Shown: positions 30,457-41,837 of the stretch, one piece after another
Numbering within the stretch: the stretch's first letter is position 1
How the letters are laid out: every line of letters begins with the position of its first letter
NCBI GenBank assembly: GCA_023336875.1
Contig: JAMBLH010000023.1
Coordinates: 1 to 42,955, forward strand
Direction: 5' to 3'
From: Actinomycetes bacterium
GTDB taxonomy: Bacteria; Actinomycetota; Acidimicrobiia; Spongiisociales; UBA5794
Length of the DNA stretch: 42,955 nt
Translations under genes and position numbers: made by a program
Notes under the pieces: generated by a model
What the model was told of the DNA's origin: nothing
Seen by the model: the letters and a program-made list of their open reading frames with translations, nothing else
The model's database searches: none

Positions 30457-32145
30457 CTAGCTCAGACCGACGACGTTTCCGTTCTCATCAATGTCGATCG
30501 TGTGGGCAGCGGGGTGCACTCCCAGACCTGGCATTCTGTTGATCGATCCTGTGAGTGGGAGGACGAAGCCCGCACCTGCGGCCAACTGGACCTCTCGAAT
30601 TGGAAGAGTCCAACCTGAGGGCGCGCCGAGCAGGGCAGGGTTGTGGCTGAACGAATACTGCGTCTTCGCCATGCAGATGGGCAGATCCCCGTAGCCGTGT
30701 GATTCGTAGCTGGCGAGTTGTCGCTTTGCCTTGATGTCGTATTCAACGCCATCCGCGCCGTACACCCGCGTGGCGATGAGCTCGATCTTGTCCGTCAGGC
30801 TCATGTCAGGCGTGTATAGCGGTACGAACTCCGAGCCGTCGTCGGCTGCAGCGCTGACGGCCTCTGCGAGGGCGACCATTCCTTCGGCTCCACCCGAATA
30901 CGGATCGGCGATGGCCCACGCTGCGCCCTCCTCCTCCGCGATCAGACCAATGGCAGCATGCTCTGAAGCGTGATCGGTGGGGAAGCTGTTCACCGCAACA
31001 ACAGGCGTAACGCCGTGTTGGCGAATATTGGCGATGTGGCGCCTCAGATTGTCAGCGCCAGCCATGACGTCTTCGGGATTCTCCGCAGTCATCTCATCTG
31101 GAAGGGGCTTTCCCGCCCTCACCTGGAACTTCCCCGAATTGAGCTTCAACGCACGAACCGTCGCGACGATGACCGCAACATCAGGAGCCATGCCGGATGC
31201 CTGACACTTCAGGTTGAAGAACTTCTCCGCCCCGACGTCCGATCCAAAGCCTGCCTCTGTGATGAGGTAGTCACCGCTGCGAACTCCTATCTGGTCCGCA
31301 ACGATCGAGGAGTTTCCGTGTGCGATGTTTGCGAACGGGCCTGTATGAACCAGGGCAGGTGTGCCCTCCAGCGTCTGCATCAGGTTGGGATTGAGGGAAT
31401 CCTTGAGCAACACCGCCATGGACCCTGCACCGCCGATCTGTTCGGCTGTGACGGGTTCCTTGTGGCGGTCGTAACCGACCACGATTCGGCCAAGGCGCTG
31501 CCTTAGATCCTGAAGATCTGTCGCAAGGCCCAGGATCGCCATGAGCTCTGACGCTGCGGTGATGTCGAACCCGCCCTCTCTCGGAATTCCATCAAGGGTT
31601 GTCCCGAGGCCGATCACGATGTGGCGCAGCGACCTGTCATTGACATCCATCACCCTTCGCCACGTGACCCGCTTCACGTTGATCGACAGCTGGTTGCCCT
31701 GATAGATGTGGTTGTCGATGAGAGCCGCAAGCAGGTTGTTGGCGACGGTGACTGCATGGAAGTCACCCGTGAGATGGAGGTTCATCTCCTCCATCGGTAC
31801 AACTTGGGAGTAGCCACCGCCAGCAGCGCCGCCCTTGATGCCGAAGGTGGGACCGAGCGAGGGCTGGCGGAGGGTGAGGACCGCTTGTTTGTCGAGAAGC
31901 TTGAATCCTTGCGCCAGTCCAACGGACACCGTGGTCTTGCCCTCGCCGAATGGCGTCGGGTTGACTGCGGTCACGAGTACATACTTCGCCCGCGGCGGTC
32001 CCATCTCGGTGAGGGCGCCAAGATCGACCTTCGCGATGCCTCTGCCCCTGGGTTCCACATACCTGTCGGGGATCCCCATGTCGTGAGCGACATCGGTGAT
32101 TGGTCTCAGATTCGTTTCTCTTGCAATTTCAAGATCAGTTTTCAT
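30457..32145 (-). CDS. fhs: Formate-tetrahydrofolate ligase
   Basis: 562 aa. MKTDLEIA...PTPFGEGKTT P-loop and typical FTHFS sequence throughout. Confidence 0.93.
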   Translation of the reverse strand: MKTDLEIARETNLRPITDVAHDMGIPDRYVEPRGRGIAKVDLGALTEMGPPRAKYVLVTAVNPTPFGEGKTTVSVGLAQGFKLLDKQAVLTLRQPSLGPTFGIKGGAAGGGYSQVVPMEEMNLHLTGDFHAVTVANNLLAALIDNHIYQGNQLSINVKRVTWRRVMDVNDRSLRHIVIGLGTTLDGIPREGGFDITAASELMAILGLATDLQDLRQRLGRIVVGYDRHKEPVTAEQIGGAGSMAVLLKDSLNPNLMQTLEGTPALVHTGPFANIAHGNSSIVADQIGVRSGDYLITEAGFGSDVGAEKFFNLKCQASGMAPDVAVIVATVRALKLNSGKFQVRAGKPLPDEMTAENPEDVMAGADNLRRHIANIRQHGVTPVVAVNSFPTDHASEHAAIGLIAEEEGAAWAIADPYSGGAEGMVALAEAVSAAADDGSEFVPLYTPDMSLTDKIELIATRVYGADGVEYDIKAKRQLASYESHGYGDLPICMAKTQYSFSHNPALLGAPSGWTLPIREVQLAAGAGFVLPLTGSINRMPGLGVHPAAHTIDIDENGNVVGLS

Positions 32146-32215
32146 GCCGACACGTTACCTATGCCCGTGTAGGAGTGCCGACCGAATGCCACGTATCTGT
32201 GAAAAGTCCGCGACA

Positions 32216-32791
32216 ATGGAGACCGTGATCACGCACACTGTTGGAGGGATTCTTGCCGGTGGAGATAGCAGCCGCATGGGCACATCCAAGTCGTTGCTCG
32301 TAGTCGACGGCATGTCATTCCTCGAGCGCATCCATAGAACCATGACGGCAGTGTTCACTGAGGTGATCGTGTGTGGTGGTTCCGAGATACCGTCCGATGG
32401 CGTGTTGATCCCAGACGAGCAACCAGGCCATGGACCGGTTGGCGGACTGCTCTCAGCGCTTCGGATTGCGAGGGGACGCCCTGTGTTCGTGACGACGGTC
32501 GATATGCCGGTCGTGACATCGGAGGCGATTCGGTCCCTTGCAGAACCAGAGGCGCAGGGGAGCACGGTCAGGATCGCGCAGGTCGCCGGCGAGGATCAGC
32601 CGCTTTTCGGGGTCTACGGACCCGACGTGGAACCGATCGCTCGCACGATCTTCGATGAGGGTCGGCGATCGGTGATGGCAGTGATCGATGAGGTTGATGA
32701 TGTCACAAGGATCACGATCGATTCTTCTACCCTGTTCAACGTCAACACAAGATCGGATTACAACGTGCTGATCGAAAGGTACGGACTGTGA
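32216..32791 (+). CDS. mobA: Molybdenum cofactor guanylyltransferase
   Basis: GGILAGGDSSRMG motif. ATG 32216 is preferred because the ORF-track start at 32096 would overlap fhs. Confidence 0.8.
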   Translation: METVITHTVGGILAGGDSSRMGTSKSLLVVDGMSFLERIHRTMTAVFTEVIVCGGSEIPSDGVLIPDEQPGHGPVGGLLSALRIARGRPVFVTTVDMPVVTSEAIRSLAEPEAQGSTVRIAQVAGEDQPLFGVYGPDVEPIARTIFDEGRRSVMAVIDEVDDVTRITIDSSTLFNVNTRSDYNVLIERYGL

Positions 32792-33099
32792 AGATCAGGC
32801 TTGCGGATGACGAGATACGCATCCGTCTCAACCATGACGATGTGGTTCGATTGATCGATGGGGGCACGGTCGACTGCGTGGTGATGCCCGGTGCCTATTC
32901 GATTCGGATGACGACCTCCGCCCACACACGATCCGAAGTCGGCTTCACCGCCACCGGCATCGACCTTACGATTCCCCCCGGTGTGCTCCCTGACAACCCC
33001 AACGAATTCGAACCACACACGTGGGGTGGTGACGCCGGGCATCCACGCGTAATGATCGAGTTGGATAAGCAACGTCGCCCGAGAACACGTAGCGGCTAG
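32788..33099 (+). CDS. Hypothetical protein (103 aa)
   Basis: The GTG start overlaps the mobA stop (GTGA). Its stop overlaps the fdhD stop convergently. No recognised motif. Confidence 0.5.
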   Translation: MKIRLADDEIRIRLNHDDVVRLIDGGTVDCVVMPGAYSIRMTTSAHTRSEVGFTATGIDLTIPPGVLPDNPNEFEPHTWGGDAGHPRVMIELDKQRRPRTRSG

Positions 33100-33875
33100 G
33101 AAATCCTCGTCCCACCGCAGTACACGTTGAATCCGTCCTCCGAGAGGAATCCAACGACCGTCATTCCGAGCTCGTCTCCGAGGTCCGCTGCGAGGGATGA
33201 TGCTCCGGATACGCCAGCGATGATTGGCATCCCTGCAACTGCGGCCTTCTGCACCATCTCGAAGCTGAGCCGTCCGGAAACAATGAGAACGAGATTGGAG
33301 AGTGGCCACCGGTCTCGTGAGAGGGAGCCGACCAGCTTGTCGACAGCGTTGTGGCGGCCCACATCCTCCGCAATACCCATGAACTCTCCTTCGGGGGTGA
33401 ATGCTGCGGCCGCGTGGATGCTTCCTGTGCGTCCGAAGACGGGCTGTGACCGCCGCATCACCGCCGGTAGAGATCTGAGCCTTGTGGCGCTGACGGTGGG
33501 ACCTTGACGAATGGTTCTTGCCGTGACTCGAACCGCGTCGATGGACGCCTTCCCACACACTCCACACGACGATGACGTGAACAGGTTGCGACGGAACTGC
33601 TCCGGATCCACCGTCACTCCATCTGCGAGCACTATCTCGTAGCGGTCGCCCTCGGTCGATCCCTCAGTGAGGCGAACTGCTGCGACCTCATCCGGAGTGA
33701 GCACGATTCCCTCCGTGAGGGAGAAGCCAAGTGCCAGATGCTCATCTTCGCCTGGTGTCCGCATCAGCACCGCAATAGGCACTCCTCCAAGCCGAAACTC
33801 AACCGGCGCCTCTTGGACGAGTTCGTCGGTGGTGGTTTCTGCTCCAGCGGCCGAGTAGCGAACGATCTCCCTCAA
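33096..33875 (-). CDS. fdhD: Formate dehydrogenase accessory sulfurtransferase FdhD
   Basis: SSSCGVCGKASID cysteine motif and GRHNAVDK. TTG start. Confidence 0.88.
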   Translation of the reverse strand: MREIVRYSAAGAETTTDELVQEAPVEFRLGGVPIAVLMRTPGEDEHLALGFSLTEGIVLTPDEVAAVRLTEGSTEGDRYEIVLADGVTVDPEQFRRNLFTSSSCGVCGKASIDAVRVTARTIRQGPTVSATRLRSLPAVMRRSQPVFGRTGSIHAAAAFTPEGEFMGIAEDVGRHNAVDKLVGSLSRDRWPLSNLVLIVSGRLSFEMVQKAAVAGMPIIAGVSGASSLAADLGDELGMTVVGFLSEDGFNVYCGGTRIS

Positions 33876-33881
33876 GACTCT

Positions 33882-34063
33882 GTCCTCCCTTCAGGGGGGA
33901 CGGCAGAGCGAAGCGATGCAGGGGGGAGTGCGAGCCTGCGAGCGGCTTGGGGCACAACCTTGTTCTGGTTCCTCGGGTACCGGGTTCGCAGGCTCAAGGT
34001 TCCCTCTGGCTCGCAAGGAACGTAGAACGTTCCCACTTGCCCGTCCCCCCTGAAGGGGGGACG
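33882..34063. repeat. MITE/REP-like element, same family as 163-373
   Basis: Left terminus gtcctccc-ttca-ggggggac (33882-33901) and right terminus cgtcccccc-tgaa-ggggggacg (34042-34063) are hairpins and mutually inverted. An internal ggaacg-tagaa-cgttcc hairpin is present. cgggttcgcaggc and gcgaagcg are shared with locus 1. It fills the spacer between the Fe-S subunit gene and fdhD. Confidence 0.65.
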
Positions 34064-34077
34064 TCTTGGGTGTGCGA

Positions 34078-34932
34078 TCACTTCTCTTCCTGCAGGTACC
34101 CGTATCCAAAGCGGCCCTTGATGCAGAGGTGGCCGTTGGTGACGTCGTGGTCCATGGGCGACGTGACCTTGACCACTCGGTTGTCCTGGACGTGTAGCTC
34201 CAGGTTGCACCCAACCCCACAGAACGAGCAGATCGTCGTTGTGATGGATTGGCGGCCCTCATCCCACGTGTCCGCCTCGCGCATGTCGTACTCCGACTTG
34301 AACATCAGTGCACCGGTAGGGCAGACTCCGATGCAGTTTCCGCAGTACACACATGCTGAGTCTGGGAGTGTGACGTCATATTCGGTCGAGATGGTCGAGG
34401 AGAGCCCACGGCCAGCCACGTCGATGGCGAAGGTGTTCTGGGCATCAGGCCCGCATGCCGCGACGCAGCGGTAGCACATAACGCATTTGTCGTAATCCCT
34501 GATGTAGAGGTCGTCCTGGATCTTGACTGCCCGGTGGGGCTCGTATCTTCCGAACCGGTCGGGATCGACGTCGTACTTTGACATCCAGTTCTTTGTCTCA
34601 GCATCGGCAAGGGAGAGGTCAACCGTCGATGCGTAGAACTCGTATAGGGTTCGCCGAGCATCTGTAATGCGTTCCGAATCGGTCGAGATCTCCATGCCGC
34701 TCTCGACGATCCGCGAGCATGCCGGCACCAGTGTGCGGGATCCCGCTACTTCGACCACACAAAGACGACAGGAGTTGAATGGGCTGAGCGTCTCGAGGAA
34801 GCACATGGTCGGCACGTCGAGATCTTGAGCGCGGCACACATCGAGAATCGTGGCGTCGGCATGTGCTGTGACTGCGGTTCTGTTGAGGGTGATCTCGACC
34901 ATTCTTGGTTCAGGAAGTGTGGACTCGATCAC
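34078..34932 (-). CDS. NuoG-like Fe-S subunit: N-terminal portion of the formate dehydrogenase alpha subunit (2Fe-2S, 4Fe-4S clusters and Molybdop_Fe4S4 domain)
   Basis: 2Fe-2S motif CFLETLSPFNSCRLCVVEV, two ferredoxin-type CxxCxxCxxxCP motifs, and a terminal CSFCGVGC-x27-C (FS0) domain ending KGRFGYGYLQEEK. The GTG start overlaps the NuoF stop (GTGA). Confidence 0.85.
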   Translation of the reverse strand: MIESTLPEPRMVEITLNRTAVTAHADATILDVCRAQDLDVPTMCFLETLSPFNSCRLCVVEVAGSRTLVPACSRIVESGMEISTDSERITDARRTLYEFYASTVDLSLADAETKNWMSKYDVDPDRFGRYEPHRAVKIQDDLYIRDYDKCVMCYRCVAACGPDAQNTFAIDVAGRGLSSTISTEYDVTLPDSACVYCGNCIGVCPTGALMFKSEYDMREADTWDEGRQSITTTICSFCGVGCNLELHVQDNRVVKVTSPMDHDVTNGHLCIKGRFGYGYLQEEK

Positions 34933-36536
34933 GAGTCACCTCCGATCAGCCCAATGCGAATGGCAGATTCGATAGCGTTTGCTGCTGTGTGGCCAAGACC
35001 ACAGATCGAGGCATCTCGCATCACCCATCCGACGGCGTCGAGATTGTCATAGTCGGTCTGGGTGTCGGTTCCTGAGCGGATCCGGCCGACGATCTCGAGT
35101 TGTTGAGATGTCCCAACGCGACACGGCACGCATAGTCCACATGATTCGTCGGCGAAGAACTCGGCGATCCGATGTGTGATCGCGCCCATGTCGACCTCAG
35201 TGTTGAAGGCCATGATTGCCCCGGATCCAAGAGAGACTCCTGCATCGCGCCCATCCTCGAATGTCAGAGGCACGTCGAGTTGGGCCTCGGTGAGGAATGA
35301 ACCTGCCGCACCTCCTGTGAGGACCGCCCGAAGTTCGCCAACTGCACCTCCTGCAAGATTGATGAGCTCTCTCGTCGTGACACCGAACTCGACTTGATAC
35401 ACGCCGGGTTTCGCCACTTTCCCACTCACGCAGAAGAGTTTGAGTCCTGTGGACTCCTTCGTACCGAGTCGTGCAAAGGAGTCGCCCCCGTCGCGGATGA
35501 TCCCAGGGATGGCGGCAAAGGTCTCGACGTTGTTGATCAGCGTCGGGGAGCCGAACAGGCCGGATTGTGTTGGGAAGGGCGGCTTCTGGCGAGGCTGTCC
35601 CCTGAATCCTTCGATCGAGTTGAAAAGAGCCGTTTCTTCTCCGCATATGTATGCGCCAGCTCCTCTGCGGATCTCGATGTCAACACCGAAATCCGAACCT
35701 GTGGCCTCCAGCGCAGCCTCGAGCACATTCTCAGCTTCGCGGTACTCCCCTCGGATGTAGATGTATGCCTTGGTCGCGCCAACGGCCAACGCTGCGATGG
35801 CAATTCCCTCGAGAAGCACGAACGGGTTCGTCTCGATAAGCCAGCGGTCCTTGAATGTGCCTGGCTCGGATTCATCTGCATTGCACACAACGTACTTCGC
35901 GTCGCCGGACGCGTCAGCAACACCGTCCCACTTGATGCCAGCGGGGAAGGCAGCACCTCCACGTCCACGAATTCCTGACACCGTGACCTCGTTGCGAACG
36001 GCGGTGGCCCCCATTGTGCGTGCCTTGACAAGAGCATCGAAGGATGGCGTGTACAACCGTGGCGACTCTGGCGTCTCGTGCGTCCCGTCGAGTACCGATG
36101 CGACTACTTCGGCTGTGACGGGCGCGATGGTGAGCGCTGTCTCGCCTGCCCTCTGGATGAAGGCGGCCGATCCCTTCTCGCAGTGCCCGAGGCACGGCGA
36201 TCGAACCCACATACCCTCACCGTTCGGTGCGCCCTCCGGGCCAATCTCGGCCTCGAGGGTTGAGATGAGCTGGTCTCCTCCAGCAGCCGTGCACACGATG
36301 TCATCACACACCCGCGCAACACGTGCGGGAGTCGGTTCGGTTGCGATCAGGTCGTAAAACGTCGCAACTCCATATGCCTCTGCCGGGGCGACAGGAATCC
36401 GTTCAGAAATGTAGTTCAGTGCCCCATGGCTCACGAACCCGATCGAATCCTGGACTGCATGGAGCGAGGGAAGCAGAAGATGCCTGTTCTCGGCCGCGTT
36501 GTGAAAGCCACCATAGGCAACATGGTCGTCTGCCAC
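34929..36536 (-). CDS. NuoE-NuoF fusion (NAD+-reducing diaphorase subunit of formate dehydrogenase)
   Basis: The N-terminal NuoE-like 2Fe-2S motifs (CDDIVC...CLGHC) are followed by the NuoF FMN/NADH part (GRGGAAFP, YICGEETAL) and the 4Fe-4S motif ESCGLCVPCR. GTG 36536 is the first canonical start, but the frame stays coding-like up to 36656. Confidence 0.85.
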   Translation of the reverse strand: MADDHVAYGGFHNAAENRHLLLPSLHAVQDSIGFVSHGALNYISERIPVAPAEAYGVATFYDLIATEPTPARVARVCDDIVCTAAGGDQLISTLEAEIGPEGAPNGEGMWVRSPCLGHCEKGSAAFIQRAGETALTIAPVTAEVVASVLDGTHETPESPRLYTPSFDALVKARTMGATAVRNEVTVSGIRGRGGAAFPAGIKWDGVADASGDAKYVVCNADESEPGTFKDRWLIETNPFVLLEGIAIAALAVGATKAYIYIRGEYREAENVLEAALEATGSDFGVDIEIRRGAGAYICGEETALFNSIEGFRGQPRQKPPFPTQSGLFGSPTLINNVETFAAIPGIIRDGGDSFARLGTKESTGLKLFCVSGKVAKPGVYQVEFGVTTRELINLAGGAVGELRAVLTGGAAGSFLTEAQLDVPLTFEDGRDAGVSLGSGAIMAFNTEVDMGAITHRIAEFFADESCGLCVPCRVGTSQQLEIVGRIRSGTDTQTDYDNLDAVGWVMRDASICGLGHTAANAIESAIRIGLIGGDS

Positions 36537-36733
36537 TGTTCGTTCCGTTGCGCCTGACCATGTCGAATCCGGCTCGCCCAGTAGCGCATCAACGGCGGCG
36601 CGCTCGGCATCCGTCGGTGCATCAGTTGTAGTTTGATAGTCGATGGTGGCCTCGCTTCAGTGTCCCCATGATGGTCGTTCGTGCGGACCAAGGAGGAGAG
36701 CGGAATACGACATCATAATTGTATGCAGTCCGT

Positions 36734-38611
36734 CTAGAGACTCTCGATACGCACAGCCGTTGCCTTGAACTCGGCGGTCCCTGACTTGGGGTCCCAGTCA
36801 TCGATCGTCAGTTGATTCACGTCGACCTCATCTGGTGCGTGAAACGCCATGAACACCAGGCCCCTGCGCAGGCCGTCCACGATGCGCACGGGTGCTTCGA
36901 CAGATCCTCTGCGTGATGAGACTCGGACAACTTCGCGCTCTTCGACGCCAAGATCCTCGGCTTGTTCCTTCGTCATGTCGATCACTACATCGGCTCGAAT
37001 AGGTGATCGGTAGCCGCCCGACTGGACTCCCGTGTTGTAGGAGTCGAGTCGTCGCCCTGTTGTCAGCCTGATAGGGAAGTCATCGTCGAGGGGATCGATG
37101 GGTGGCATCCATTCGACTATCGAGAACGGAGCAGGTTCTCTTGGCAGGGTCTCCTCCCAGAGCCATCCATGGAGGAAAGGTGTTCCCGGGTGATCGTCGT
37201 CCGGACAGGGCCACTGGAGCCCGCCGAGGGCGTCAAGGCGTTCGTAGGACATACCCGCGTGCATGGGCGAGAGACTGCGGAGTTCGTCCCAGATGGCCTC
37301 TGCGTCGCGTGGCTCCCAATCGTGGCCAAGTGCATTGGCGAGCATCGTGATGATCTCATTGTCGTCCTTCGCCTCGCCTGGAGGATCGAGCGCCTTGCGA
37401 ACTCGCTGGACGCGGCGCTCTGATGAGGTGACGGTTCCATCGGTCTCCGCCCAGCCTGCTGCGGCGGGAAAGACCACGTCAGCCATTTGTGCGGTCTTGG
37501 TGAGGAAGATGTCCTGAACAACAAGGTGGTCGAGTCCATCGAGAAGGCGGATCGCCCTGCTGACATCTGCCTCGGACTGCGCGGGATTCTCGCCGATTAC
37601 ATACATCGCCGTGAGTTCACCGAGATCCATTGCATCGATCATCTCAGCGATGTGCCATCCGGGTTCCGCTGGAACGGGTGAGTCCCAAGCTGCTTCGAAC
37701 TTGGCTCTCGCATTACGGTCCGTAACGTCCTGGAATCCAGGGAACTTGTTCGGGAGGGCACCCATGTCGCCGCCCCCCTGGACATTGTTCTGTCCACGGA
37801 TCGGGACGAGCCCCGATCCCCACCGGCCGACGTGGCCTGTGAGAAGAGCGAGGTTGATGAGAGAGAGCACGTTGTCTGTCCCGGTGGCGTGCTCGGTGAT
37901 CCCGAGCGTCCAGCACAGTTGCGCAGTTGGCGCCTTTGCATAGTCGTGAGCAAGAGCGCGGATCGCCTCAGCGGGCACTCCAGTGATTTCCTCACCACGC
38001 TCGAGGGTCCAGGTCTCGACCGACTCTGCGTACGCATCGAATCCGGACGTCGAGTGCTGAATGAACTCGGCATTGACCAGGCCTGCGTGGATGATCTCAC
38101 GGGCGACCGTGTTCGAGAGAGCTATGTCTGATCCGACATCGATGCCCAGCCACGTATCGGCCCATTCAGCAGACTCTGAGCGTCGGGGGTCGACGGTATA
38201 CATTTTTGCGCCGTTGCGGATGCCCTTGGTGATGCGGTGAAAAAAGATAGGGTGGGCGTTGCGCGCGTTCGACCCCCACAGGACGATTAGGTCCGTGGTC
38301 TCCATCTCCTTGTAGGAGGAGGTGCCTCCTCCTGCCCCGAGCACTGCCGCCAGACCGGCGACGGAGGGAGCGTGTCAGGTACGGTTGCAGCTGTCTATGT
38401 TGTTCGTGCCGAGAACCGTCCTGGCGAACTTCTCTGCGAGAAAGTTCATCTCATTGGTTGCCTTGGAACACGAGAGCAGTCCCGTTGCCGCACCGGAATT
38501 GCGTTCGAATCCTGCCGCTGCCGTTGCCAGAGCCGTATCCCAGTCTGTCGGCTGCAGCTCGCCGTCGATCCGAACCATCGGCGAGGTCAACCGCTCATAT
38601 CGTTTACCCAT
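36734..38611 (-). CDS. Formate dehydrogenase catalytic subunit (Mo/W-bisPGD domain only), selenocysteine-containing (TGA at 38375-38377 read as Sec)
   Basis: ORFs 38375..38611 and 36734..38344 share one frame, separated only by a TGA. Joined, they read NNIDSCNRT-U-HAPSVAGLAAVLGAGGGTSS, the FDH active-site motif. ATG 38611 is preceded by GGGAGGTGA. The C-terminal molydopterin-binding domain ends AEFKATAVRIESL. Confidence 0.82.
38328..38377 (-). promoter_or_regulatory. UGA codon plus putative bacterial SECIS hairpin
   Basis: mRNA reads UGA CAC GCU CCC UCC GUC GCC GGU CUG GCG GCA GUG CUC GGG GCA GGA GG. Upper stem GUCGCC/GGCGGC with loop GGUCU. Lower stem CCUCC/GGAGG. The loop starts 22 nt from the U of UGA. 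Confidence 0.6.
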
Positions 38612-38665
38612 CTTTCACCTCCCGTCGCCAGAGCCCACGGTACCACCCCCGCACGCAAGAACCGG

Positions 38666-39298
38666 CTAGACGATGCGGCGGTCACTTGCCCAGCGGGCGA
38701 GCTCGTGGCGGTTGGAGAGTTGGAGCTTGCGCAGGACGGCAGAGACGTGGGTTTCTACGGTTTTGGTCGAGATGTCCAGGCGTCGGGCGACCTGTTTGTA
38801 CTGGTAGCCGCGGGCGATCTGGCGTAATACCTCTTTCTCGCGCGGTGTGAGTTGGTCAAGTTCTGGGTCCTCCTCGATCGGCACCGCCTTTGAGAACGCC
38901 TCGAGGACGAAGCCGGCCAGCGAAGGCGAGAAGACCGCATCGCCGGAATCCACCCTGCGGATCGCGTCGGCGAGTTCGGAGGGAGAGATTGATTTCGTCA
39001 CATATCCCCGACATCCTGCACGGATCATCGCGATCACGTCCTCAGGCGCGTCCGATACAGAGAGCGCGAGGAATCGGATGCCGGGATTCGTCTCCGAGAT
39101 ACTCGTGACCACAGCAACTCCTCCCCCCCCGGGCATGTGTACATCAACCAGTACGACATCCGGCTTGTGTGCGCGAATCTCGTCGATCGCACCATCGACA
39201 TCCCCCGAGACGCCGAGCACATCGAACTCGTCTGAGAGTTCTGCCCGTACACCCGTGAGGAAGAGAGAGTGGTCGTCCACCAGATACACCGACGTCAT
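38666..39298 (-). CDS. LuxR/NarL-family response regulator
   Basis: Receiver domain (DDHSLF...DVVLVDVHMPGGGG) plus LuxR HTH (LTPREKEVLRQIARGYQYKQVARRLDISTKTVETHV). ATGA overlap with the kinase gene. Confidence 0.9.
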   Translation of the reverse strand: MTSVYLVDDHSLFLTGVRAELSDEFDVLGVSGDVDGAIDEIRAHKPDVVLVDVHMPGGGGVAVVTSISETNPGIRFLALSVSDAPEDVIAMIRAGCRGYVTKSISPSELADAIRRVDSGDAVFSPSLAGFVLEAFSKAVPIEEDPELDQLTPREKEVLRQIARGYQYKQVARRLDISTKTVETHVSAVLRKLQLSNRHELARWASDRRIV

Positions 39299-40476
39299 AA
39301 GGTACCTCCAGGCATTGTCAGGTGGACCTCCGTGCCAACTCCGCTTGACGAGTCGATTGTCACGGTTCCGCCATTGCGCGACATCCGTCCCCGGATGGAC
39401 TCAGTGATTCCTTTGCGGTCCGCTTCGACGTTCTCGGGATCGAAGCCGCAACCCTGATCTGTGATGAACACTTCGACGTCATCGCCGGTCGCCTCGGCGA
39501 ACACTGAGACCTTGGCCGCTCCCGAATGCTGTGCGGCGTTCATCATTGTCTCCGTTGCTGCTCCGACGAGCGCCTTCTGAGCTGCGGGGGGGAGTTCGTC
39601 ATCGCCCACCACAACGACGGTGACAGGGACGTCGTGGGCCTCCTCAACTCTTGTGGCGGCCGCTCCTAGCGCGCCGCGGAGAGTCTGTTCGTCGGCAGCT
39701 TCAGGGTTATAGAGCCACGCGCGGAGGTCTCTCTCCTGAGCTCGTGCAAGAGTGACCATCTTCTTCGGATCCTCTGTGCGCTGGATGAGCGCGAGGGACT
39801 GGAGCACGGAGTCATGGAGGTGAGCCGCCATCTCGGCACGCTCCTCGGAGCGGATGCGAGCTCGGCGTTCCGTACCGAGATCCTCAATCAGGGACCAAAA
39901 CCACGGACCACCCACGATGACGAACCCAACAAGCGTGAGGATTGTCGCAATGACGAGAGCACCCACCGATTGAAGCCCATCGAGCGACGTCAGCACGAAG
40001 GCTAGACCAGCGATCATCATGGCAAGGCCACCGAGGACAAGCCACCACGGACGCCGTGACGAGCCAACAACGCCTTCGAGAGACTGCTCGTAGTTGAAGC
40101 CGGACGTGTCGATTGCGATGGCGAGACCGAAGAGGACGAGCACGATCGGCCACGTGGCAGGACCGAACCAGAGCCCGATTCCCTGGAAGAGGAGCATTCC
40201 TGCAAGGAACATCGCGCCGATGCCGATCTTCTGTCGCGTTGTGGCTGAATGCGATTCAGGGGGTCCCTTGGCCTCAGGAACGATGAGCGAAGCGAGCACG
40301 TACGCGATGAGGCCAACCCCGCCAGCAAGCATCGCGGAGAGAAATGCTGCCCGAACGTATATCGGATGGATGCCGAGTCTCTCGCCGATTCCTCCAGCAA
40401 CGCCGGTGAGCATGCGCTTGTCTACCGATCGAAGGAACGGCCAATCGATTGTCTTGTGTCCAGAAGTCATTGCCAC
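39295..40476 (-). CDS. Sensor histidine kinase with N-terminal PspC domain (HisKA_3/HATPase)
   Basis: PspC motif RMLTGVAGGIGERLGIHPIYVRAAF, multiple TM helices, H-box AAHLHDSVLQSL, and ATP-binding part with NAAQHS...DQGCGF. Start is GTG 40476 or ATG 40470. Confidence 0.85.
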   Translation of the reverse strand: MAMTSGHKTIDWPFLRSVDKRMLTGVAGGIGERLGIHPIYVRAAFLSAMLAGGVGLIAYVLASLIVPEAKGPPESHSATTRQKIGIGAMFLAGMLLFQGIGLWFGPATWPIVLVLFGLAIAIDTSGFNYEQSLEGVVGSSRRPWWLVLGGLAMMIAGLAFVLTSLDGLQSVGALVIATILTLVGFVIVGGPWFWSLIEDLGTERRARIRSEERAEMAAHLHDSVLQSLALIQRTEDPKKMVTLARAQERDLRAWLYNPEAADEQTLRGALGAAATRVEEAHDVPVTVVVVGDDELPPAAQKALVGAATETMMNAAQHSGAAKVSVFAEATGDDVEVFITDQGCGFDPENVEADRKGITESIRGRMSRNGGTVTIDSSSGVGTEVHLTMPGGTL

Positions 40477-40525
40477 AGTGCTCCCAATGGTGTCACAGCC
40501 TGCGCACTGTCACAACTGGGGACGA

Positions 40526-40551
40526 CCCTGAGAGAACCCTGAGACCTCAGG
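40526..40551. promoter_or_regulatory. Direct repeats and palindrome in the divergent kinase/PspC intergenic region
   Basis: ccctgaga occurs twice (40526-40533 and 40537-40544). cctgag-ac-ctcagg is a palindrome (40538-40551). tgtcaca also occurs twice upstream, at 40491-40497 and 40508-40514 (outside this feature's span). The function is speculative. Confidence 0.3.
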
Positions 40552-40607
40552 AATGGAGGGGGCTGTTCCCTATTGCGGACCCAGTCGATTCACGACACGA
40601 TTACGAC

Positions 40608-41837
40608 ATGACTGACTACAACTACAGCCCAGACTCATCGACCACGTTGCGACGCTCAGACGATCAGAGGATCTTCGCAGGAGTATGTGGAGGACTCGGC
40701 GAACACTTCGGAGTCAACGCATGGTGGTTCCGTTGGGCGTTCATCATTCTGGCATTCTTCGGATTTGCCGGTATCGCCATCTACATTGCTTCCTGGCTCC
40801 TCATTCCGGATGAGGACAGTACGGAGTCGATTGCCGGAGGGTGGTTCGACGGTCTCGACATGAGTGATACGGGCACACTCTTCGGTGTGGTCCTCATCGG
40901 CGTTGCGGCGTTAATCATTGCGACAAGCGTCTTCCACATCTCGGGTGCAATCGTCATTGCGGTCGCACTTGGCATCATCGGATTCCTTCTCTACCGGGGG
41001 GACATCCGCCCGCCCGCCAAGACCCAGCCAACAGTCGATGAAATGATCGAAGTGAAAGAGGTCGAGGAATCGGCCGACGGCACGCCAGCGGGTACGACCG
41101 CAGCGGTAGTCACGACATCAGTTGCTACGAAACCTCAACGGACGCACAGGCCGCCGAAGGAGAAGAAGCCGCGTCCGCCCAAGTCAATGCTCGGTCGGCT
41201 CACAATGTCTGTCATGCTCATCGTGCTGTCGTCCATGGCGCTTATCGAGCTCGCTGATATCACCCGCATCGAGCCGTACGAGTATGCGGCTGCGGCCATG
41301 GGCGTGGTTGCGGTTGGGTTACTCGTGGGCGCATGGGTCGGTCGGGCGTACTGGCTGATCTTCATCGGCGTTCTGATTGCCCCTGTGCTGTTCTTCTCAT
41401 CACTTCTCCCGAGCATCGCGGATTGGTCAGCCGGTGATCCTCGCTACATGCCCACATCCGCGGACGAGGTCGCTGAGAGCTATGACCTCGGGGCCGGCCA
41501 GATGACCATTGATCTGACGCAACTCTCGGCCGATGAGCTGTCGAAGGTCGGTGAGATCGATGCATCAGTGAGCCTGGGGCAGCTGATCGTGCGTCTCCCC
41601 TCCAACGTCGGCGCAACCGTGAACGCGGAAGTTGGTGTTGGCGAGGTGACCGGCGGCGAGATCTTTGAGTCCGTGTTGGTGGACGTCTACCAGTACTCCG
41701 GTGTCAACGTGGAGCAGGTATTCACGGTCGGACCGCCACCGAATGATCTTCTCCTGAACCTCGAGGTGGGCGCTGGTGAGATAAGTATCCAGTACATTGG
41801 CGAGCTTGAGCTCGGCGTGAGTGAAAGCAAGGGATGA
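40608..41837 (+). CDS. PspC domain membrane protein with LiaF-like C-terminal region
   Basis: From ATG 40608: RIFAGVCGGLGEHFGVNAWWFRWAFIILAF PspC motif, several TM helices, a proline/lysine linker and a C-terminal beta-rich domain. Confidence 0.75.
   Translation: MTDYNYSPDSSTTLRRSDDQRIFAGVCGGLGEHFGVNAWWFRWAFIILAFFGFAGIAIYIASWLLIPDEDSTESIAGGWFDGLDMSDTGTLFGVVLIGVAALIIATSVFHISGAIVIAVALGIIGFLLYRGDIRPPAKTQPTVDEMIEVKEVEESADGTPAGTTAAVVTTSVATKPQRTHRPPKEKKPRPPKSMLGRLTMSVMLIVLSSMALIELADITRIEPYEYAAAAMGVVAVGLLVGAWVGRAYWLIFIGVLIAPVLFFSSLLPSIADWSAGDPRYMPTSADEVAESYDLGAGQMTIDLTQLSADELSKVGEIDASVSLGQLIVRLPSNVGATVNAEVGVGEVTGGEIFESVLVDVYQYSGVNVEQVFTVGPPPNDLLLNLEVGAGEISIQYIGELELGVSESKG

Follow-up and report, generated by a model that had tools for sequence, protein, structure and literature searches.

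A probable three-subunit selenocysteine formate dehydrogenase with the FS0 iron-sulfur domain on a separate polypeptide, encoded on an actinobacterial contig

The DNA analysed here is a stretch of 42,955 nt from contig JAMBLH010000023.1 of an Actinomycetes bacterium (assembly GCA_023336875.1). The whole stretch is called the window, and coordinates are counted from its first letter. Its minus strand carries a candidate operon for a formate dehydrogenase (FDH) in which the alpha subunit is encoded in two separate halves. The first gene on this strand is fdhA (36734..38611), whose product of 625 amino acids (aa) is a catalytic (alpha) subunit with only the domains for a Mo/W-bis(pyranopterin guanosine dinucleotide) (bisPGD) cofactor, as judged from its translation and from matches to PF00384, PF01568 and TIGR01591. 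It is followed by a nuoE/nuoF fusion (34929..36644), encoding the diaphorase (beta) subunit, and then by the gene for a 284-aa Fe-S (gamma) subunit (34078..34932), which has the FS0 domain at its C-terminal end. A Shine-Dalgarno sequence, GGGAGG (38618..38623, minus strand), was read directly 6 nt before the alpha ATG at 38611. The nuoEF stop and the GTG start of the gamma gene overlap by 4 nt (GTGA, 34929-34932), which suggests translational coupling.

The domain content of the two halves is complementary. Pfam assigned Fer2_4 (residues 10-86), a 4Fe-4S dicluster domain (~146-209) and Molybdop_Fe4S4 (PF04879, the FS0 domain; 230-280, E=2e-19) to gamma, and Molybdopterin (PF00384; 7-426, E=1.6e-63) and Molydop_binding (PF01568; 515-618, E=1.8e-23) to alpha, on which PF04879 was not found. 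The NCBIfam profile TIGR01591 (Fdh-alpha) is divided between the two proteins, with positions 1-50 matching gamma residues 233-282 and positions 51-672 matching alpha residues 5-622; the break is therefore clean, falls on a domain boundary and leaves nothing out. The gamma C-terminus reads ...CIKGRFGYGYLQEEK, and its FS0 motif is C235-x2-C238-x3-C242-x27-C270. An earlier reading of the letters alone (the sequence-only reading) had proposed that an FdsA/FdhA-type alpha subunit is truly split right after FS0, with the halves in the order catalytic half, nuoEF, Fe-S half and with FS0 on another polypeptide than the Mo and selenocysteine centre. TIGR01591 and Pfam agree on the split, the minus-strand open reading frames (ORFs) confirm the order, and both profile sets, together with the ORFs of homologues, place FS0 on the other chain. 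The C-x2-C-x3-C-x27-C...KGRFG motif, both termini and the Shine-Dalgarno sequence are as it described them, and its argument that a frameshift or nonsense mutation is unable to explain the split stands.

The alpha subunit has selenocysteine (Sec) as the metal ligand, followed by histidine (CNRT-U-HAPSV), and carries PIRGQNNVQGGGDMG; its active-site arginine is presumed from comparison with FdhH. Sec is residue 79 and is encoded by an in-frame TGA (38375..38377, minus strand), assigned from the translation and from the homologous codon in relatives, and without Sec readthrough the ORF is only 536 aa long. The alpha homologues are 62-97% identical to the window protein. TGA occupies the homologous codon (CNRT-U-H) in all 58 distinct Sec-type sequences of relatives and TGT or TGC in two cultured actinomycetes, so that Sec or Cys is kept in 60 relatives. 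A SECIS-type (selenocysteine insertion sequence) hairpin, GUCGCC-GGUCU-GGCGGC (38346..38362, minus strand), was recognized by comparison of the 58 Sec-type sequences. Its 6-bp stem begins after 12 nt 3' of the UGA, the GGUCU loop is invariant (58/58), and the stem shows three kinds of double compensatory change, C-G to G-C, G-C to A-U and C-G to U-A. In two Cys variants (L087 and L089) the same VAGL peptide is still encoded, but the stem complementarity is gone. The loop position agrees with that of Escherichia coli fdhF. Folding of the single sequence after the UGA was no better than that of shuffles, and a scan of the whole window against Rfam returned no RNA family; the case is built only on the comparison of 58 sequences, which gives good evidence that the hairpin is a SECIS element.

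The gamma subunit has retained the ligands of four clusters. Its 16 cluster Cys and Lys272 do not vary across 42 gamma homologues; the residues are C44, C55, C58 and C72 for a [2Fe-2S] cluster, C150/153/156/160 and C194/197/200/204 for two ferredoxin-type [4Fe-4S] clusters, and C235/238/242/270 for FS0, followed by Lys272. The His-ligated cluster (N5/A4-type) is a different matter. In the alignment to FdsA chains 6tg9 and 9wxb, FdsA has HPLDCLTCAANGDC where the window gamma has TVDLSLADAETKN, and the Rhodobacter capsulatus ligands H117, C121, C124 and C130 fall on non-ligand residues. The HxxxCxxCxxxxxC motif occurs in none of 83 split-type proteins versus 17 of 26 fused proteins. In R. capsulatus FDH the A4 cluster sits at the dimer interface and is not part of the main electron path (PMC7171172), so its loss in gamma need not break the electron chain. 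The gamma subunits of nine actinomycete loci (L023, L026, L031, L054, L063, L069, L075, L084 and L085) carry a Cys-free, His-rich insertion of ~30 residues (…AGERD…GHHH…PD…) at the place where the fused enzymes bind the His-ligated [4Fe-4S] cluster.

The beta subunit comprises 2Fe-2S_thioredx (PF01257), Complex1_51K (PF01512), SLBB and NADH_4Fe-4S (PF10589) domains, with NCBIfam matches to NuoF and NuoE; its nuoF_fam score of 410 bits is below the cut-off of 559. The motifs Cx4C...Cx3C, GRGGAAFP and CxxCxxC were found by eye. The conservative ORF (34929-36536) has a GTG start and 535 aa. Conservation suggests that the true start is probably a non-canonical ATC at 36644-36642, which lies 36 codons upstream of that GTG (36536) and would give 571 aa. 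The upstream peptide (IDYQTTTDAPTDAERAAVDALLGEPDS...) is conserved among the loci compared (L001, L004, L007, L008, L037, L014, L010, L011 and L025), and at the corresponding first codon six lineages have ATC, one ATA, one TTG and two ATG. A Shine-Dalgarno sequence of the GAGG/GGAG type precedes every such start. Four lineages have an in-frame stop 3-18 nt upstream, so that no canonical start remains for nuoEF. The junction between the alpha gene and nuoEF varies among relatives. The window has a short gap only; the closest relatives have a PemK-family toxin gene and a small upstream ORF (L004 5650-6187, L005 4718-5243, L006 2613-3138), and Chloroflexota/Limnocylindrales loci have 1-3 kb of extra DNA (L050, L062, L077 and L078).

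The arrangement is widespread in public genomes and metagenomes and is not peculiar to the window. The gamma subunit has at least 8000 related proteins; the best 120 clusters are 67-91% identical and ~243-392 aa long, with PF04879 as the last listed Pfam domain in all of them, and some of the clusters at 90% identity from soil-type metagenomes have over 200 members. An exact-sequence look-up of the window gamma returned no record. Contigs with relatives of 70% and 89% identity have the same gene order, and the TGA has caused their alpha gene to be called in two pieces, of 78 and 536 aa. When one genome per GTDB species was scanned, there were at least 600 matches, including at least 80 loci at 53-68% identity. 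The carriers are labelled as Acidimicrobiia, several actinomycete families, Acidobacteriota, Chloroflexota/Limnocylindrales, Dormibacterota, Eremiobacterota, Eisenbacteria, Binatia, Bacillota and others, at least eight phyla in all, although most are metagenome bins, so these phylum labels are approximate and individual ones may be wrong. Presumably most of these groups are aerobic.

The order catalytic half, nuoEF, Fe-S half was colinear in 58 of the 61 loci with at least 4.4 kb upstream, as determined by tblastn with the window proteins. The exceptions are L028 and L059 (alpha gene probably beyond the fetched flank) and L058. In every locus examined the gamma ORF ends 8-51 residues past the FS0 CxKG motif, and no Cys motif was found upstream of the catalytic ORF in the loci examined. 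Thus the three-gene order is common to independent assemblies of many species, and none of the 625-aa-type homologues that were checked for an FS0 domain of their own has one upstream. Together with the proteomic detection of all three subunits of an enzyme of this architecture (PMC7176365), these outcomes decide the refuting conditions set by the sequence-only reading in favour of a real split. In a neighbour-joining tree of 83 split Fe-S halves and 26 fused N-terminal regions, the split forms make up one clade, with identities of at least 0.50 within it and at most 0.42 to the fused proteins; this topology fits a single origin followed by wide spread. Full-length Cys variants of alpha, 63-65% identical, are present in many Streptomyces and in Thermopolyspora, Kutzneria, Nonomuraea and Streptosporangium, and an operon of alpha, beta, gamma and fdhD with Cys occurs in the cultured Thermopolyspora flexuosa and Streptomyces sp. 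NBC_00338, where alpha is 63-64% identical to that of the window.

A search of the representative library gave many fragments. The matches of ~355-378 aa were not split forms but fused Sec-type FdhA proteins truncated at their UGA, and two others were discarded, P0210 as frameshifted and P0239 as a fragment. In P0124 (1405 aa) the region similar to the Fe-S half spans residues 832-1103, which would be consistent with another part being fused upstream of it.

Several genes related to cofactor and formate metabolism surround the three subunit genes. fdhD, for an FdsC-like sulfurtransferase and chaperone that inserts bis-MGD (the bis-molybdopterin guanine dinucleotide cofactor), lies at 33096..33875 on the minus strand (PF02634, E=3.4e-64) and is found directly 3' of the gamma gene in L001, L004, L007, L008, L087 and L089. 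A mobA-like molybdenum cofactor guanylyltransferase gene lies at 32096..32791 on the plus strand (PF12804, residues 52-195); L004-L006 have a 191-aa orthologue at the same place, and the true start in the window is probably downstream of 32096. fhs, for formate-tetrahydrofolate ligase, lies at 30457..32145 on the minus strand, is 77-94% identical to PF01268 genes beside the same operon in L001, L004 and L007-L009, and adjoins the operon both here and in the closest relatives, which ties the operon to C1 metabolism. The remainder of the window is ordinary chromosome, with parAB, trxB, an ECF (extracytoplasmic function) sigma factor gene, arginine biosynthesis genes, uppS, ino1 and padR. A promoter and terminator scan of 33000-39400 gave counts no better than chance.

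Upstream of the alpha gene is a LuxR-type response regulator gene (38666-39298, minus strand), preceded in turn by a gene for a PspC-domain histidine kinase (39295-40476) and a divergent one for a PspC-domain membrane protein (40449-41837). L004 and L005 have this trio beside the operon as well, and it may consist of syntenic neighbours or include a regulator of the operon. Between the gamma gene and fdhD is an insert of ~200 nt (33876-34077), which is absent in the 89-93% identical L004-L006, where the two genes overlap. Its edges bear near-identical 20-nt palindromes, GTCCCCCCTTCAGGGGGGAC at 34043-34062 and GTCCCCCCTGAAGGGAGGAC at 33882-33901 (0.01 expected by chance), its fold energy is -104.9 kcal/mol (z = -6.5), and one more copy of the palindrome was found in L008 (316-335). 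The insert looks like a miniature inverted-repeat transposable element (MITE) or a repetitive extragenic palindromic (REP)-like element.

In our reading the locus is a functional operon whose product is a cytoplasmic, NAD(H)-linked Mo/W-bisPGD formate dehydrogenase of three subunits, of the type of FDH3 from Actinomycetospora chiangmaiensis, and we assign this a probability of roughly 0.78. A number of observations weigh against it. The alpha subunit scores 638 bits on TIGR01591, below the curated cut-off of 666.25, and every solved relative in the Protein Data Bank (PDB) carries FS0 on the Mo chain. The AlphaFold model of gamma alone has a mean pLDDT (predicted local distance difference test) of 58.5, with values below 50 across all cluster-binding segments. 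No Sec machinery genes or tRNA-Sec were found within the window by the tRNA scan and ORF annotation. At L058 (5977-6987, in a Chthonomonadaceae bin) a gamma gene whose product is 57% identical stands without alpha or nuoEF within 6 kb on either side, which may reflect either a rearranged operon or stand-alone use. FDH3 itself (WP_084681743.1, WP_018332443.1 and WP_018332444.1) was likened to the window proteins by description only, and the literature search returned no purification or structure of the three-subunit type.

The alternative that survives best keeps the same enzyme and reverses its role, so that CO2 would be reduced to formate with NADH, feeding fhs and, for example, the reductive glycine pathway. 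We consider this unlikely. The adjacency of fhs here and in the closest relatives speaks for it, whereas the thermodynamically unfavourable reduction of CO2 by NADH counts against it and no other reductive-pathway genes were seen among the annotated window ORFs. FDHs of this family are reversible (PMC7171172), but the A. chiangmaiensis enzyme is induced when formate must be removed (PMC7176365).

It is less likely still that beta and gamma form a general HoxEFU-like diaphorase, with the FS0 tail as a docking adaptor and alpha as one, possibly facultative, client. Such a module would account for the resemblance of gamma to HoxU (146 bits on the HoxU model, below that model's cut-off), for the solitary gamma gene of L058 and for the tolerance of the alpha-beta junction to insertions, namely the toxin-antitoxin pair in L004-L006 and the 1-3 kb in the Chloroflexota loci. 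However, in Mo/W-bisPGD catalytic subunits FS0 is the cluster of domain I, and here the FDH profile is divided exactly into two parts; moreover, alpha, beta and gamma stand together in those 58 of 61 loci, with fdhD directly after them in many.

An FDH of the HylABC-FdhF2/Bfu type, electron-bifurcating or linked to ferredoxin, is about as improbable, if anything slightly more so. Pfam found no additional ferredoxin domain on beta, including its NuoF part, NuoE is fused to it and not a separate HylC, and the carriers mostly belong to groups which we take to be aerobic. A separate NuoG-like Fe-S subunit (HylA) beside a NuoF-like subunit is typical of these systems (PMC5736913), but in them FdhA keeps its 4Fe-4S domain (PMC5736913), while the window has FS0 on gamma. 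Finally, the locus might be an artefact of assembly or rearrangement, or a pseudogene in decay, the halves being remnants of a once-fused fdhA. This reading can draw only on the unusual look of the locus and on the lack of another record of the exact gamma protein, and is to be dismissed: dozens of independent assemblies, as well as isolate genomes that are closed or nearly so, have the same order and split point, the cluster ligands are invariant, the SECIS hairpin covaries, and proteomics detected all three subunits of the A. chiangmaiensis enzyme of the same architecture (PMC7176365).

In the proposed FDH3-type enzyme the three proteins would assemble into one complex. The alpha subunit would bind bis-MGD, and formate would be oxidized at its Mo/W-selenocysteine centre, with Sec79, His80 and the RGQNNVQG-motif Arg. 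Electrons would go first to the FS0 [4Fe-4S] cluster supplied by the gamma C-terminus; this C-terminus would also provide the conserved Lys (CIKG), which in FdhH-type enzymes forms a bridge between pterin and cluster. Only the hop from pterin to FS0 would thus cross a subunit interface. Within gamma the electrons would pass through the two ferredoxin-type [4Fe-4S] clusters and then the [2Fe-2S] cluster, and would continue to the N3-type [4Fe-4S] cluster, flavin mononucleotide (FMN) and NAD+ of beta, the presumed final acceptor, with the NuoE-type [2Fe-2S] cluster off the path. Maturation of the cofactor would fall to FdhD and MobA. The presence of fhs alongside suggests oxidation of formate released from 10-formyl-tetrahydrofolate to CO2 with a gain of NADH, in a reaction that would be reversible in principle.

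Whether the location of FS0 on a separate subunit is a functional design, and not neutral fission, is a more tentative matter, and we regard the former as possible but doubtful. If it were so, the alpha pterin pocket would be complete only once gamma docks with the proximal cluster and the bridging Lys, and cofactor insertion by FdhD and wiring to the NAD module would be separate, ordered assembly steps. The enzyme might then have properties unlike those of the fused enzymes, such as an active site protected until assembly and exchangeable catalytic modules, and these properties would apply to a widespread class of Sec formate dehydrogenases from soil and marine bacteria.

In the fdsGBA order nuoEF precedes the fused alpha gene. 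The permuted order of the window might have arisen most simply from one ancient event, for example a tandem duplication of [nuoEF-fdhA] with loss of both ends. Loss of the first [EF + Fe-S part] and of the last [catalytic part] from the duplicate would give catalytic-EF-Fe-S in one step, and the model would thus explain the split and the permutation together. If correct, the gene order would be a duplication-and-truncation scar, an operon-level analogue of circular permutation in proteins.

To our knowledge this is the sole case of a Mo/W-bisPGD enzyme with the proximal FS0 cluster provided by another polypeptide. A structure would reveal how much of a "catalytic subunit" one chain needs. The enzyme type could also matter for the engineering of NAD-linked CO2/formate catalysts, and the Cys variants in cultured Streptomyces and in Thermopolyspora flexuosa make the biochemistry practical. 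Annotation pipelines cut alpha at the UGA and give gamma generic names ("2Fe-2S iron-sulfur cluster-binding protein", "HndD", "YjgC"), so that a capacity for formate oxidation is easily missed. The three-subunit type appears to be common, yet the only account of it found in the literature is in a supplementary legend (PMC7176365).

That account concerns the cytoplasmic FDH3 of Actinomycetospora chiangmaiensis DSM 45062 (Rohwerder et al. 2020, PMC7176365, Supplementary Fig. S4). The arrangement is thus already in print and expressed, and the claim of the sequence-only reading that no such FDH had been described does not hold. FdhA3 has 640 aa, U80 and the metallopterin domain only, FdhB3 is a NuoE+NuoF fusion of 614 aa, and FdhC3, of 316 aa, is "a separate but homologous" Fe-S protein resembling the N-terminal Fe-S domain of the fused alpha (PMC7176365). 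The FdhB3 and FdhC3 genes are probably adjacent, judging from their consecutive accessions. All three proteins were present in the proteome and were 2-3 fold more abundant on 2-hydroxyisobutyric acid (2-HIBA), the breakdown of which yields formate, and formate removal in A. chiangmaiensis required selenium (PMC7176365). The paper makes no mention of FS0 travelling with gamma (PMC7176365), and the literature search did not turn up any discussion of an FS0 cluster that works from another subunit. The window shares with FDH3 the FS0-less Sec alpha, the NuoE/F beta and the separate gamma of ~300 aa, but its subunits are shorter (625, 535-571 and 284 aa versus 640, 614 and 316 aa) and it belongs to another class, its nearest relatives being labelled Acidimicrobiia. 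In a homologue search seeded with an actinomycete gamma, Actinomycetospora was not among the matches listed. Papers on mycobacterial, Rhodococcus and deep-sea Chloroflexi FDHs were rejected as precedents, as they describe other FDH types, and nothing relevant was found in the literature on Acidimicrobiia FDH or Streptomyces FDH.

The enzymes of known structure that come closest are FdsABG(D) of Rhodobacter capsulatus and Cupriavidus necator and Fdh1AB of Methylorubrum extorquens (PDB 6tg9, 9wxb, 7vw6 and 7e5z). They have the same set of bis-MGD, FS0, two ferredoxin-type [4Fe-4S] clusters, [2Fe-2S], N3-type [4Fe-4S], FMN and NAD+; there is likewise an FdhD/FdsC chaperone, and Fdh1B too is a NuoE/F fusion. 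The window gamma and alpha align to FdsA residues 23-304 and 307-932, respectively. FdsA, however, is a single chain, whereas in the window the Fe-S domain is a separate gene downstream of nuoEF; these enzymes use Cys in place of Sec, and at their dimer interface is the His-ligated A4 cluster, whose ligands are absent in the window. No FdsD was seen in the window.

The HylABC-FdhF2 complexes of Clostridium acidurici and others, as well as HoxEFU, also have a protein resembling the NuoG N-terminus as a subunit of its own beside NuoE/F-like subunits. In these systems, though, the break lies before FS0 and the catalytic subunit keeps the proximal cluster, while in the window it lies after FS0, and the Hyl subunits carry extra clusters tied to bifurcation. 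A precedent for a Mo/W-bisPGD unit on two polypeptides with a cut at a domain boundary is formylmethanofuran dehydrogenase, FwdB/FwdD, in which the separate piece is the Molydop_binding C-terminal domain and FS0 stays with the main subunit.

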